Shown one piece after another: positions 25,330-64,000 of a stretch of DNA of 64,000 nucleotides. Position numbers and translations under genes: made by a program. Under the pieces are notes generated by a model that ran no database searches, was not told the DNA's origin, and saw only the letters and a list, made by a program, of their open reading frames with translations. Origin of the DNA: a virus (taxonomy: Duplodnaviria; Heunggongvirae; Uroviricota; Caudoviricetes); the IMG/VR virus record IMGVR_UViG_3300028805_000039, positions 127,852 to 191,851 of that record. One strand, given 5' to 3'. Numbering within the stretch: position 1 is the first letter of the stretch; each line of letters begins with the position of its first letter.

Positions 25330-26400
25330 CCCCTATGAATAATGCCCGGGCAAATCGGCCCGGAGACGCTAGCGTAGGGCCGAACTTCCATTATATCATA
25401 TTTCAGGAAAATTGTCAAGTAAAATATTGCACAAAAATTGGTTTACATAATATCCCGAAACTGTGCACTTTGCTACGCTAAATCGCTAACACTTTAGCAC
25501 GCTAAATCGCTAAATCGCTACTGCGTTAAAGTCCGGCCGCTATGTCTTGACAAAAATATCACAATGTCTGGAAAAAATCTCCATATGCGGCTCGATTTTA
25601 AACAAAAGTGGGCCTAATTTTACCGGTCGGTGGCTTTCGCTAGTCACATATGCGATTGATTTTAAAACAAAAGTGGCTTTAAAACCAGTATATAAAAAAT
25701 TTTAACTAGTTTTTTATCAAAAAAAACTAGTTTTTTTGCGTTTTTAAGTAGTTTTAACTCGTTTTTACTTAGTTTTGCGGCGTTTTTGGCTAGTTTTATC
25801 TCGAAAAAATACCACTTTTTTTGCCTATTTTTGGCGAAAAAAGCCGGTCGGAAACTTGACTTTTAAAAAAAAATTTGATATAATATCAAAAAAAACCATT
25901 TTTTTTTAGGCCGCACGCCCGGATAATAGCATCATTTTATCCTATTCCAGAAGCCAAAATTAAAGGTCAAATTGCCTCACATCAAAAAAAATTAACACGA
26001 ATTCACGTTTCTACTTTTAAAAGTAGTGCGGAGGACAAGAATTATGCCTGGCATACGAGTTCCAAGAGGAACAGAGAAAGGAAAAGTAGGCATATGCGGC
26101 CTTATATTTTATTTAATAATTGACAAATATAAAATAATATGATATAATATAAAAAAAACATACTTTAAATGAGGAGCCACGGATTTAATTCTATTTGCCT
26201 CGCACAAAAATTTTCATTCTCATTTTAACACCTTTATTTTTAACTTTCATAGATAAAACAAGACTATAACTGGCAATACGACTCCAGAGCAAACGAAAAA
26301 ATTTTTGAAGCCGGTCGGTTTAACTATGTATAAAAAGTATTAATTTGAATTTTTTAAAAAAATATTATATAATATATATAGAAAATAAATAAAGGAGAAT
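25330..26400. other. about 1.1-kb non-coding control region at the boundary between modules: short iterons, gccggtcgg x3, catatgcg x3, gattttaaacaaaagtgg x2, phased A/T tracts
   Basis: no ORFs; repeats listed; '(a)ctagtttt' tracts at a 10-11 bp period over 25690-25815; two promoter-like elements. Confidence 0.5.
25470..25540. repeat. cgctaaatcgcta iterons shared with 1680-1870
   Basis: ctacgctaaatcgctaacactttagcacgctaaatcgctaaatcgctact. Confidence 0.5.
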
Positions 26401-26407
26401 TTCTTAA

Positions 26408-26800
26408 ATGAATTATAATTTTAATGATGTAGAGAAGTATCTACGTAATGGTGGAGATGCTGTTGAGTTGGCTCAGGCTTTTGCTGATACTTTGAATAAT
26501 GCACTTGCTAAGTTCCAGAAGGAAAGCAAGTTGGATGAAAAAGCTAATGGGCTTGCCGCGGCTTGGAATGCTTATATTGACGAATATTTTAAGAATCATG
26601 ATGTCCCTGAGAATTATGTCGTGGCCGATATGTATCTCAATACTAAGGATGTCAATTATGTGATGGAGCAGGTGTTGAAGTTTATTCCTCTACTTGATAA
26701 GTTGAATGGATTCTTTGAGATTGGTGCGGAACAGGTGTCCAAGAGCAAGAATAAGGTAGAAGATACAGTAGATAAGTTCTTTGATAAGTTTGGTATCTAA
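26408..26800 (+). CDS. hypothetical protein (130 aa), first gene of the AT-rich module
   Basis: ORF track; late-type promoter at 26340-26395. Confidence 0.55.
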   Translation: MNYNFNDVEKYLRNGGDAVELAQAFADTLNNALAKFQKESKLDEKANGLAAAWNAYIDEYFKNHDVPENYVVADMYLNTKDVNYVMEQVLKFIPLLDKLNGFFEIGAEQVSKSKNKVEDTVDKFFDKFGI

Positions 26801-27229
26801 TAAGTGCCGGAATTAATTTTAATTGTGTACCTTGAAATTTGACAAATTTACTTGCCGTTAAATAAGAAACGAAGATGAACTCGTATTTCTACTTATAATT
26901 GTCGTAGAGTTGAGTTGGATAAAGTGGGAATACGAGTTTTTTAGAAACGGTTGACGGCAACGATGAAAATTAAAAGTCAAGATAAACCGGGCGGAGGCCA
27001 GACCTGTAACGCAATCCAGTGTTATAACGTAACGCAATCCAACCCAACACAATACAAATATAACGTCATAATATACCATTCCAAAAACAATATTTCCTTT
27101 CACTATCTAAAAAGTGAAAGGATTTTTTATTTTCATTTCATTTTTTAAAACACCCTCCCGCCAATTTTTCATTCCATTTTCCAAAACCTCTATTTCCCCT
27201 ATTCCCAGTGGACCACTCGCCGCCAATAC

Positions 27230-27362
27230 TCCCCATTCACAAATATGATTTATAATTATAGATTTATATTACTATCTATTATATATATTATTATATACTA
27301 TATATTATATAATTAAAAATATATATTATATAATATATCTATATAAAAATATATATATTATA
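27230..27362. repeat. pure A/T low-complexity tract (candidate DNA-unwinding element)
   Basis: about 130 bp containing only A and T. Confidence 0.6.
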
Positions 27363-27364
27363 TT

Positions 27365-27840
27365 TCTCCGGAAAAATTTACCGAATCTTGGTGAAAATGC
27401 CTGTTCCAACGACCGCATCTACTAATTCCAGACCAACTTTCGGTAAATTTTACCGTTTCTCCGGTCGTAAATTCGATAAAAATTACCGTTTTTGTGATAC
27501 GTAAATGCGGTAAAATTTACCGCTTTTCCGAGTGTAAATTCGGTAAAATTTACCGAATCTAAATAAAAATGCTAAAACGGTAAAAATTACCGCTTTTACG
27601 GTCGCAAATTCGGTAAAATTTACCGAATTAATACTTTTATCACAAAAATTTAGGAAGATTCATTTAATTCGGTAAAATTTACCGTTTTTCCGTTCGTAAA
27701 TGCGGTAAAATTTACCACTTTTAATATTAACTTTCGGTAAAATTTACCGCATTTACGGTCGCAGTTTCGGTAAAAATTACCGTTTTTCCGTTCGTATAAA
27801 ACGGTAAAAATTACCGTATTTACGACCGCCCCATCTTTTA
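27365..27840. repeat. iteron array: about 14 copies of the near-palindromic 15-mer CGGTAAAATTTACCG
   Basis: units separated by ccgttcgtaaat/gcggt spacers; adjacent to an initiator-like gene; candidate replication origin. Confidence 0.65.
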
Positions 27841-27858
27841 ATAAATTACCATAATTTA

Positions 27859-28293
27859 TTAAAATGTCTAAACTCGTCTTAACTCTCCATCGCTAAGCCG
27901 CACGACATCTTTTTCTATCCATTCAGCATCTTTGTCAACCTCATAACTCAATATGACTTTCAACTTATCCTTTTCATAAGTCTGCGGCACTTCATCAAAT
28001 CTATATCCATTACCAGAAATCTAAACGAGATATCCCTTATTCTCTAATCCCTATCTGGCTTCACGCCAACTTTTATCACTACCCCCAAATTCCTCAATTA
28101 AAGCCTATGGACTAAAAGCCCAACTATCTTTAATCCTATGACAATAAATCCATAAATAAACTTCAAAAGGCTTGCACTCTTTCACAACTTTCTCAAATGC
28201 TGCCGCACTTAATCTATAATAATGATGCGTCGTATCTTTTAAAGCCTCATATCCAGGATAAATAATCTTTGAATTTCTATAAGTCGTTGCCAA
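27859..28293 (-). CDS. replication-initiator / replisome-organiser-like HTH protein; recoded, with 4 in-frame TAG and a TTG start
   Basis: minus-strand frame reads ...WAFSP-TAG-ALIEEFGG...EAR-TAG-GLENKGYLV-TAG-ISGNGYRFDEV...RRV-TAG-TF then TAA; next to the iterons. Confidence 0.45.
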
Positions 28294-28298
28294 GATTA

Positions 28299-62446: not shown

Positions 62447-62535
62447 ATGAAAGAAATTTTAATTTTATCTTTTATTGCGATATTATTAATATATTTTTTT
62501 GATATAAATTTTTGAAGCACTGTGTGCTTCTATAT

Positions 62536-62612
62536 GCCCACGTAAGCTAATGGATAAACTGCTGGGTTTCTACCCCAGATCTATGAGGGTTCGACTCCTT
62601 CCGTGGGTGCCA
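62536..62612 (+). tRNA. tRNA-Arg(TCT)
   Basis: acceptor gcccacg/cgtgggt; anticodon stem ctggg/cccag with loop tttctac; T-arm gagggttcgactccttc; CCA. Confidence 0.7.
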
Positions 62613-62713
62613 TACTTCGCAACCGTATAATAAGCGCTTATGTACGGCCAATTCCACAAATATTGCGGCGCGGGTATCCTGCTTTCCCCGTAAAATATGA
62701 GCAGGTCCAATAT

Positions 62714-62803
62714 GGTAAAGTAGCCAAGTCTGGTTTAAGGCCGCGGTCTGCAAAACCGGTCAGACCCGTAAGGGCGTGGGTTCAAATCCCACCTTTACCT
62801 CCA
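62714..62803 (+). tRNA. class-II tRNA (long variable arm) with an ambiguous anticodon (canonical numbering gives GCA)
   Basis: acceptor ggtaaag/ctttacc (7 of 7 bp); T-arm gtgggttcaaatcccac; variable-arm hairpin cccgtaaggg; CCA; anticodon stem has only 4 of 5 pairs. Confidence 0.45.
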
Positions 62804-62827
62804 ATATATTAAAAGGAGTAAAATATT

Positions 62828-63697
62828 ATGAATATTCAGTCTTTATCTATTATGGTTCCCTGTGGCGGTCATTGTATGAATAATTGTAAATTTTGTGTTT
62901 CTCGTATGAGAGATGATGAAAGCATTTTTGGTAAAGAAATTATTAGTGTGGCAAATATCCCTCAATCTTATATCGACCGCATTAAATATGTTCGTGATAC
63001 CGGGTGTGATAATATGATTATTACTGGTACGACAGAGCCACAGCAAAATATAGATTTTATTAATACACTTTTATGGAAAATTAATAAAAATTTACCTAAA
63101 CCTTTTTATAATATTGCAATTCAAACCACTGGTGCTAATATGTCAGAATCAAATATTAGTTTTTTAGCAACTAGTGGCGTAAATACTCTTGCTTTGTCTG
63201 TATCTTCTTTTAATTATAAACATAATTGGGATATTATTCAAACTCCAGAAGCAGCCAGAAAGATGAATGTAGATGATTTAATTATTGCTGCTAAAAGATA
63301 TAGTATGAATGTGCGGGTATGTCTTAATCTTACTGATGAATTTAATGATTGTACTCCTTTTGATTTCTTTAATTGGGCTAATAATAGAAATGTAGACCAG
63401 TTAACTTTTAGAAAAATATATCGAAGTGGGAAAAATACTGAACAGGATAAATGGATTATTCAGCATAATTATAGTAATGAGAGCTATACTAAAATTATCA
63501 AATTTATAAAAAAAATGGGAACTCCTATTCGTATTTTGCCTTTTGGGGCTACTCTTTATGATTGTATGGGTATTGGCGTAGTAGTTGACGAAGATTGTAT
63601 GGCAAAGAAAAATCTTGAAGATATGCGATACGCTATTCTTAGGCCCAATAATCATCTTTATTCTTCTTGGGACTTAAAAGGAAGTTTAATTTATTAA
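62828..63697 (+). CDS. radical SAM enzyme (CxxxCxxC)
   Basis: N-terminal ...CGGHCMNNCKFCVSR (Cys triad C-x3-C-x2-C) and an ITGTTEP glycine-rich SAM-binding-like motif; RBS aaaaggagtaaaatattATG. Confidence 0.6.
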   Translation: MNIQSLSIMVPCGGHCMNNCKFCVSRMRDDESIFGKEIISVANIPQSYIDRIKYVRDTGCDNMIITGTTEPQQNIDFINTLLWKINKNLPKPFYNIAIQTTGANMSESNISFLATSGVNTLALSVSSFNYKHNWDIIQTPEAARKMNVDDLIIAAKRYSMNVRVCLNLTDEFNDCTPFDFFNWANNRNVDQLTFRKIYRSGKNTEQDKWIIQHNYSNESYTKIIKFIKKMGTPIRILPFGATLYDCMGIGVVVDEDCMAKKNLEDMRYAILRPNNHLYSSWDLKGSLIY

Positions 63698-63699
63698 TT

Positions 63700-63960
63700 A
63701 TGTTTATTGAAATTGATAATTATTTTTGTATTGATACATCTGAAATTAGAGTTTTTAAACAGTGTGATAATAAAACAACGTGTGTAATTTATATAAAGGA
63801 TGATCCAAAAGGTTTAACATTTGAAGATAAGCAGGGTAAACTTTATGATAGTCTTAAAAAAATTTTTAATGTTCATGATGCTTTATATCCTGATATTAAA
63901 CAGGTAATGCCGTCGAAAGTTGAACAATCAACTTCTGATGATGAAAAGGTTAGGTGGTAA
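63700..63960 (+). CDS. hypothetical protein
   Basis: inside track ORF 63667..63960. Confidence 0.45.
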   Translation: MFIEIDNYFCIDTSEIRVFKQCDNKTTCVIYIKDDPKGLTFEDKQGKLYDSLKKIFNVHDALYPDIKQVMPSKVEQSTSDDEKVRW

Positions 63961-64000
63961 AATATGGAAATTGAAAGAAAATGGTTAATTAAAGGTTTCC

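Follow-up and report, generated by a model that had tools for sequence, protein, structure and literature searches.

The 64,000-nucleotide stretch of DNA analyzed here in full (the window) spans positions 127,852 to 191,851 of the IMG/VR virus record IMGVR_UViG_3300028805_000039, which is assigned to the Caudoviricetes, and its genes treat the amber codon TAG differently on the two sides of a boundary at about 26 kb. In the right block TAG is a sense codon, and the residues found opposite it in homologous proteins indicate that it most likely encodes glutamine, as in genetic code 15. The boundary between the codes coincides with a boundary between two promoter classes, likewise at about 26 kb. 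Very probably, the window belongs to a jumbo phage that uses the amber codon in two ways, according to block.

The window has a GC content of 35% and densely packed small genes, nearly all on the plus strand, together with 29 tRNA genes (ARAGORN). Two public metagenome contigs are 100% identical to it: L036 spans positions 1-12453 and a further 8 kb upstream, and L034 spans positions 56483-64000 and a further 8.4 kb downstream. L046, a third contig, assembled independently from the same sample, matches positions 20251-36800 at 99.99% identity, across the block boundary. The smaller contigs derive from ENA ERZ27256871 and SRR9006654. Tracing exact protein matches onward through L034, L043 and further short contigs extended the sequence by about 9.5 kb beyond the window end, so that 81.5 kb were read in all (the window, 8 kb upstream and about 9.5 kb downstream) of a genome of at least 240 kb. 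One gene of L034 is also present on a public contig of 239,565 bp, and therefore the window is part of a jumbo phage genome. A megablast search with positions 30-45 kb returned no match among GenBank phages. However, a gene for a major-vault-protein-like (MVP-like) product has 33 relatives, all of them on IMG/VR viral contigs of sizes up to 200 kb, and these contigs, the dense small genes, the tRNA array and the two promoter classes together establish the phage origin of the window. The flanks of the MVP homolog are not conserved among these 33 loci, leaving the MVP gene as the only one there informative on TAG; stops found in other frames of the related loci proved to be shadow matches and were set aside.

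To assess the code, open reading frames (ORFs) were listed between TAA and TGA only, scored by a codon-usage score trained on long standard-code ORFs, and called under three stop sets. Between 26400 and 46500, calling with TAG as sense (code 15) raised the coding coverage from 0.729 to 0.839, the mean gene length from 114 to 145 residues, and the summed coding score from 1666 to 1830, an improvement that the initial annotation of this DNA had proposed to look for. A control in which TGA was sense (code 4) brought no gain, with a coverage of 0.723, and within positions 1-26400 neither TAG-sense nor TGA-sense calling improved the gene calls. As had also been claimed, TAG is the sole internal stop: the TAG-bearing ORFs contain no in-frame TAA or TGA, and each ends at one of these two codons. 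The TAGs quoted in the annotation were all found in the frames given for them (30794; 38776 and 38833; 39802, 40387 and 40477; 53250; 61327), as were those of the minus-strand ORFs, with four in 27859-28293, three in 28495-28746 and four in 29547-30248. Public gene calls on L034 already read through TAG.

Codon counts on the window extended by both flanking contigs show the same division. Beyond codon 15, in-frame TAG accounts for 4 of 5844 codons to the left of 26 kb versus 40 of 8868 to the right (Fisher p = 8e-6), and the four on the left fall in ORFs of low score, including two minus-strand ones, apart from a single TAG that was verified as a true stop. An initial test that demanded 40 stop-free codons on either side of a TAG was too strict, since TAGs cluster, and was replaced by the code-specific calling. 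The segments between successive TAGs have positive coding scores, bar three small negative cases, and many of the segments behind a TAG lack an ATG from which translation could restart; in 27859-28293 there is none at all. The region with in-frame TAGs starts at about 27.8 kb and reaches 8 kb past the end of the window.

The initial annotation had counted at least 19 recoded genes in this region. Recoding on this scale is upheld in kind, but the number is a little lower: 17 TAG-bearing ORFs were called in 26400-64000, of which about 11 are well supported (those at 27859, 29547, 30358, 30779, 38638, 39637, 41997, 43168, 44142, 58160 and 59373) and six are ambiguous (28495, 53079, 54883, 57926, 59903 and 61189). 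TAG-bearing genes make up about a quarter of the right-block genes and are intermixed with TAG-free ones; within 33322-38578 the single in-frame TAG called is codon 2 of 35137-35394, and none is verified. The principal TAG-bearing genes are as follows.

27859-28293, minus strand: replication-initiator/DnaD-like gene; TAGs at 28107, 28053, 28023 and 27870.
28495-28746, minus strand: small gene, ambiguous; internal TAG at 28650, ending in TAG-TAG-TAA.
29547-30248, minus strand: formate/nitrite-transporter-like membrane protein; TAGs at 30116, 30095, 29870 and 29618.
30358-30705, plus strand: gene of 115 residues; TAGs at 30400 and 30601, with post-TAG segments that score positive and have no ATG.
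30779-33226, plus strand: MVP-like gene of 815 residues; TAG 30794 at codon 6.
38638-39564, plus strand: gene of 308 residues; N-terminal TAGs at 38776 and 38833, with segments that score positive.
39637-41277, plus strand: cysteine-rich protein of 546 residues with a TTG start; TAGs at 39802, 40387 and 40477.
41997-42788, plus strand: gene of 263 residues; TAGs at 42021, 42342, 42519, 42525, 42552 and 42663, with all segments positive.
43168-43470, plus strand: gene of 100 residues; TAGs at 43273 and 43402.
44142-44357, plus strand: gene of 71 residues; TAGs near its start at 44160, 44184 and 44202.
58160-58795, plus strand: gene of 211 residues; TAG at 58220, next ATG 113 codons on, coding score 81.6.
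59373-59909, plus strand: membrane-protein-like gene; TAG at 59490.
61189-61533, plus strand: zinc-ribbon protein of 114 residues, ambiguous; TAG at 61327, with the Pfam zinc ribbon N-terminal.

Several of these products match known families across their TAGs. The transporter-like protein matches Pfam PF01226 in one stretch (residues 8-193, E 2e-19) that crosses three TAGs, and its residues 28-175 align with the FocA structure 3kly (E 8e-4), at a distance too great to tell the residue at a TAG. The initiator-like product gives weak matches to PHROG 270 and PHROG 186 (E about 1e-4) over residues 20-104, three TAGs included. The MVP-like protein contains Pfam MVP_shoulder and Vault_3, and its ATG at 30779 lies directly behind a class B promoter (described below) and an AAGGAG ribosome-binding site. 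For the 546-residue protein 1450 homologs were found, the best 120 of which are mostly 500-600 residues long and cover most of the query; it has no Pfam or PHROG family match, and apparently represents an abundant uncharacterized family of large phages. The homologs found for 38638-39564 cover residues 80-282 only, and 41997-42788 has no family match in Pfam or PHROGs. The public call for 58160-58795 on L034 passes through TAG 58220. That for 61189-61533 is the fused 114-residue product, yet an ATG lies two codons past its TAG. At 28495-28503 on the minus strand, the triple stop TAG-TAG-TAA makes the C-terminus of the small gene differ by two glutamines between the codes. The gene claimed in the annotation at 53169-53351 begins just past a ROOL RNA, and an alternative TTG start at 53079 would overlap that RNA.

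Alignment with homologs had been proposed as a check on the code, with glutamine as the expected residue, and its outcome agrees with code 15: the homologs run collinear across the TAGs and have glutamine at the conserved TAG columns. TAG 30794 of the MVP-like gene lies within 35 conserved N-terminal residues; of 29 related viral loci with an aligned residue opposite it, 27 have glutamine. TAG 40477 of the 546-residue protein faces glutamine in 119 of the 120 best homologs (of 1450), in the motif GY(C/P)F-Q-DENLTN. A third such site was found just past the window, on L034, where an N6-adenine methyltransferase gene contains six TAGs; its codon 444 corresponds to glutamine in 118 of the 120 homologs listed. 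Because the variable columns are mixed, the glutamine assignment rests on these three strongly conserved sites. TAG 39802 falls in a column of Q, E, N and K, with Q in an 89%-identical homolog, and TAG 40387 in a variable, gapped column, with W in the closest homolog; taken over the variable TAG columns, close homologs (72-89% identity) match TAG with Q twice, at 39802 and at methyltransferase codon 72, and have W, E or A at three other sites. The homolog and Pfam evidence across the TAGs therefore makes pseudogenes, errors or another amino acid poor accounts of these genes. In one IMG/VR relative, L009, the MVP homolog has an in-frame stop opposite a tryptophan of the window protein, and coverage of that locus is slightly greater when TGA is read as sense (0.83) than when TAG is (0.81).

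For the left block, the initial annotation had stated that early genes stop at TAG and that none of them needs read-through. The latter statement is borne out, since calling with code 15 gives no gain in 1-26.4 kb and 18923-19780, the one stretch that looked promising for read-through, proves to consist of two genes. The former applies more narrowly: two of about 68 early genes end at TAG, and the block mostly avoids the codon. The features concerned are listed below.

1-25900, plus strand: standard-code-compatible "early" block of about 50 small genes, extending at least 8 kb upstream of the window.
11245-11391, plus strand: small early gene of 48 residues ending at TAG, in the public call on L036; class A promoter at 11184.
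18923-19453, plus strand: early gene of 176 residues ending at a true TAG (19451-19453), as judged by homology.

The gene at 18923-19453 has 159 homologs of about 160-220 residues, and the alignments stop at query residues 172-174, where the homologs have their own C-termini. TAG 19451 is therefore a true terminator, and read-through would add 108 codons that fuse the gene to the next one. At 11245-11391 the terminal TAG, which stands in the sequence and in the public call, is a candidate terminator; the verification by homology applies to 18923-19453. Read-through of the smaller gene would add just 8 codons. Pfam families identified in the left block are PcfJ (PF14284, in the PcfJ-like protein encoded at 13016-14128), nucleoside 2-deoxyribosyltransferase and NT5C.

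The promoters divide the sequence at the same point. Class A promoters, which precede nearly every one or two genes of the left block, are of near-consensus sigma-70 type (TTGACA-N16-18-TATAAT, often with TG), and many have a GCCCGGGC hairpin upstream; the repeat families of this block are D4, D5, D8-D15 and D18. On the plus strand the pattern TTGAC(A/T)-N16-18-TA(T/C)A(A/C)T has 63 matches between -7620 and 25856, about one per 530 bp, versus just six between 26 and 72 kb, most of which are hybrids with class B. The class B promoter is a uniform, AT-rich motif of 40 nucleotides, TTGAAAATTTTAAAAAAATATTATATAATAT(A/T)TATAGAAAA, represented by repeat families D1, D2 and D6.

26120-60887, plus strand: class B promoter sites, 19 copies.

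When its 30-nucleotide core was searched with at most five mismatches, 22 sites were found from 26120 to 71007, two earlier ones at 6411 and 17165, and none on the minus strand; a more divergent copy lies in the left block at 2515. Where a gene directly follows, the motif starts about 63-64 nucleotides upstream of the ATG, and the genes so placed include TAG-bearing ones at 30779 and 38638 (the promoter at 38575 is exactly 63 nucleotides upstream of ATG 38638). Class B retains a TATAAT -10 element and a TTGAAA -35-like element, and to judge from these elements it may be readable by a host sigma factor. The base composition changes at the boundary as well: GC falls from about 0.40 to about 0.30, the glutamine codons CAG/CAA number 99/41 on the left versus 62/135 on the right, and off-frame TAG rises from 7.1 to 13.1 per kb. 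The near-complete separation of the two promoter classes is a separate line of evidence for two expression classes. The evidence allows the right block to be called a second temporal class and no more.

Together, these observations suggest how the two uses of TAG might be kept apart. The left block, which begins 8 kb or more ahead of the window and ends at about 26 kb, would be expressible by an unmodified host through its near-consensus sigma-70 promoters and would be expressed first. The right block, from about 26 kb to at least 72 kb, would follow with its class B promoters and tRNA array, with TAG decoded as glutamine by a phage-encoded tRNA(CUA) charged with glutamine, of the kind that related phages carry. 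Full-length products of the TAG-bearing genes would then appear only once the suppressor had accumulated; the MVP-like protein would be gated at codon 6, and the initiator-like protein by four TAGs. The TTGACA/TATAAT promoters and AGGAG-type ribosome-binding sites point to the host, which is probably a member of the Bacillota with the standard code. A Lak megaphage with a Prevotella host, as suggested by the size, the tRNAs and code 15, appears to be ruled out by those same promoters and AGGAG sites.

Several observations weigh against this two-code interpretation. Neither the window nor the 8 kb upstream and the roughly 9.5 kb downstream yielded a tRNA with the anticodon CTA; the window was searched by ARAGORN and by Rfam at gathering and permissive thresholds. 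The variable alignment columns place E, K, N, W or A, not Q, opposite TAG. Early genes that end at TAG are one, possibly two. The initiator-like gene with four TAGs fits a strictly "late" class awkwardly, and no structural or lysis gene was found by Pfam or PHROGs among the 35 proteins scanned. With no such genes identified, the timing labels are carried by the promoter classes by themselves. The label "late module" of the initial annotation is accordingly not confirmed: neither Pfam nor PHROGs detected capsid, tail, terminase or lysis genes between 26400 and 64000. Presumably the structural genes are located beyond the window. What the right block does encode includes the MVP-like and formate/nitrite-transporter-like proteins, a radical SAM enzyme, the initiator-like protein, tRNAs and a ROOL RNA, and past the window end a STAND/AAA NTPase and TAG-bearing DNA methyltransferases.

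The missing suppressor tRNA deserves closer consideration, as the window contains the place where one would be expected.

47588-62803, plus strand: tRNA array amid small genes, with 25 of the 29 window tRNAs (ARAGORN, Rfam), continuing 8 kb past the window.

In the 81.5 kb there are 45 tRNA genes, one of them interrupted and none with CTA, and a BLAST search with the suppressor tRNAs of relatives gave no match in the window, L034 or L036. Neither RF2 nor glutaminyl-tRNA synthetase turned up among the 35 scanned proteins, a subset of the ORFs. In nine related loci, however, the tRNA cluster that precedes the MVP gene by a few kb includes one or two tRNA(CUA) genes, and in many related loci coding density rises with code 15 only (from 0.55 to 0.93 in L018 and from 0.67 to 0.91 in L004). 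The tRNA(CUA) genes and density gains of these relatives mark recoding as a trait of the lineage. The most economical inference is that a suppressor would be encoded elsewhere in the genome of at least 240 kb. It is very unlikely that the phage has no conventional tRNA(CUA) and decodes amber by an unusual tRNA set that includes an interrupted tRNA-Gln, a reading that was weighed with about 160 kb of the genome lying outside the sequence read.

The interrupted gene itself is a tRNA-Gln(UUG) at positions 14794-14947 of L034 (window coordinates 71276-71429, about 7.3 kb past the window end), whose anticodon loop is split by an insert of 83 nucleotides. The insert folds into an acceptor stem, a D arm and a T arm with a CCA end of its own, but a normal anticodon arm is missing. 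Across the composite, the Rfam tRNA model scores 48.6 bits with an insertion of 86 nucleotides. In the near-identical contigs L041 and L044, from other samples, the tRNA-Gln(UUG) is intact and free of the insert. Elsewhere in the tRNA set there are four A-wobble tRNAs, namely Cys(ACA) at 51464-51536, Ser(AGA) at 56812-56904, Thr(AGT) at 59024-59099 and Arg(ACG) at L034 8879-8958; Cys(ACA), the anticodon of which is unusual, scores 55.9 bits with Rfam. Genes for tRNAs with encoded CCA ends occur in both blocks.

Could the TAGs be explained without a change of code, or by a different one? In favor of pseudogenes, sequencing errors or separate small genes in one frame, a few of the ORFs are ambiguous: in 59903-60091 and 61189-61533 an ATG lies within 0-2 codons of the TAG, and several of the ORFs are very small. 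Yet it is TAG alone that interrupts, never TAA, TGA or a frameshift, and the TGA-sense control is flat. Homologs are collinear across the TAGs and TAG stands at invariant glutamines, while independent contigs are identical at the TAG sites and many post-TAG segments offer no start codon. For the genes with homology support such an explanation is effectively refuted, and taken as a whole it is scarcely credible. That TAG might instead encode pyrrolysine, tryptophan, tyrosine, glutamate or lysine finds some footing in the W of the closest homolog at 40387, in several variable columns where E or K is commonest, and in the "Pyl" tag that ARAGORN attaches to the relatives' CTA tRNAs, although this is simply its label for that anticodon. 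Three sites nevertheless fall on a glutamine conserved in 93-99% of homologs, and the suppressor tRNAs of the relatives show a weak or mismatched 1-72 pair and G73, which we take to be glutamine-like identity features. A different residue is accordingly highly improbable.

The contrast between the blocks might also have arisen by other means than regulation. Had a standard-code phage (1-26 kb) and a recoded one (26-64 kb) been joined into a chimera, or were the window a recent mosaic, the GC drop and the flip in glutamine codons at the boundary would be natural consequences, and the early region is indeed rearranged in L046. That same contig, however, was assembled separately and is 99.99% identical over 20251-36800, crossing the boundary; moreover, near-perfect class B promoters stand within the early block (6411 and 17165), almost all genes share one strand, and CCA-ended tRNAs are found on both sides. 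It would thus be most surprising if two unrelated genomes had been joined here. There remains the proposal that TAG is sense throughout infection, owing to a recoded host or a constant suppressor, and that the left block lacks TAG only because its genes are short and of different composition, with no switch at all. In its favor, TAG-free genes are common in the right block too (as in 33322-38578), off-frame TAG is rarer on the left, and the timing is inferred. Still, 18923-19453 needs TAG as a terminator, its homologs ending alike, and the code boundary matches a sharp change of promoter class. To our knowledge, no bacterial lineage reads TAG as glutamine. Borges et al. predict standard-code hosts in all cases bar the code-25 phages (10.1101/2021.08.26.457843), which likewise counts against a permanently recoded host. 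On balance we consider constant decoding of TAG unlikely, and prefer the two-code interpretation.

That interpretation places the window among systems that have been described before. As the initial annotation noted, stop recoding by code 15 is known in some gut phages, both from the gut and rumen phages of Borges et al. (10.1101/2021.08.26.457843), which comprise Lak, crAss-like, Garnet, Amethyst, Topaz and Agate and include cattle-derived and Firmicutes-infecting phages, and from the work of Peters et al. (PMC9523058). The model of Borges et al. is one of standard-code translation first and a suppressor-driven switch thereafter, and a suppressor tRNA is detected in only 40% of their TAG-recoded genomes (10.1101/2021.08.26.457843). 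Being detectable in about 40% of such genomes, a tRNA(CUA) is a typical feature and not a strictly defining one. The window resembles these phages in having in-frame TAG in part of the genome, a rise in density with code 15, low GC and a depletion of TAG as terminator, as well as in the tRNA(CUA) of its relatives, its gut- or rumen-type animal metagenome source and the same proposed mechanism. It differs in the lack of a suppressor tRNA within 81.5 kb, in that structural and lysis genes are absent among the recoded genes seen, and in that the code boundary can be linked to a switch of promoter class, a relation which Borges et al. did not examine, the word "promoter" being absent from their text (10.1101/2021.08.26.457843).

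For crAss-like phages, Peters et al. used metaproteomics to validate code 15 (PMC9523058). As in these phages, TAG here appears to stand for glutamine in a host that probably uses the standard code. The crAss-like phages, with genomes of about 100-190 kb, have hosts among the Bacteroidota, whereas here TTGACA/TATAAT and AGGAG suggest Bacillota and a gene of the phage occurs on a contig of at least 239.6 kb. In addition, proof for crAss-like phages is at the protein level, while recoding in the present phage is known from its sequence.

Large virulent phages such as T4 and SPO1 have early, middle and late temporal promoter classes. The arrangement here is reminiscent of theirs in its dense host-type promoters before small early genes and in a second, uniform motif before another set of genes. 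Unlike in those phages, however, the class B motif keeps TATAAT- and TTGAAA-like elements, and the timing is deduced from the sequence.

The phenomenon and its model are thus already published, and the window is a further example with refinements and no new principle. New are the correlation with promoter class, a homology-verified TAG terminator in the same genome, and recoded genes of accessory or replication type. As an illustration of the published two-code model it is unusually clean, since the switch from TAG avoidance to TAG as glutamine falls at the switch of promoter class. There is also a practical consequence, in that annotation with the standard code truncates or splits about a quarter of the genes of one arm: the conserved N-terminus is cut off the MVP-like protein, the 546-residue protein becomes three fragments and the transporter-like protein up to five. 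Finally, the window offers candidate reporters of amber gating in promoter A versus promoter B, the codon 6 TAG of the MVP-like gene and the read-through fusion 18923-19780.

Some further features of the sequence merit description. The early modules occur in a different order in L046, where positions 1-862 correspond to window 19417-20278 and positions 834-3888 to window 14875-17930; the compared region is L046 1-3888 against window 14875-20278, and the remainder of L046 runs from window 20251 onward. The breakpoints coincide with repeated promoter/terminator cassettes, and the rearrangement reflects either population heterogeneity through recombination at repeats or an assembly ambiguity. Two genes of the left block, 18356-18647 and 21601-21892, are paralogous and 79% identical.

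The palindrome CGGTAAAATTTACCG recurs at least 11 times at 27441-27818, with a spacing of about 33 nucleotides, in an intergenic gap at which the genes change strand. This CGGTAAAATTTACCG array adjoins the minus-strand initiator/DnaD-like gene 27859-28293 and may serve either as the iterons of a replication origin or as a partition site.

Between 46500 and 58000 the coding density is just about 0.35-0.39 even with code 15. The tRNAs and the ROOL RNA account for part of this interval, and several stretches of a few hundred nucleotides behind class B promoters have no assigned content. The ROOL RNA is full-length (52506-53129, plus strand; Rfam RF03087, 292 bits, E 4e-66) and lies inside the tRNA-rich region, with a class B-like promoter at 52164, about 340 nucleotides upstream. 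A weak Y-RNA-like (YrlA) match at 48006-48132 scores 31 bits against a threshold of 69. Past the window, downstream of a tRNA-Gln(CTG), positions 523-1400 of L043 form about 900 comparatively GC-rich nucleotides with no ORF or Rfam match, and behind them come a class B promoter and a gene that contains two TAGs in frame; this segment may be another large non-coding RNA.

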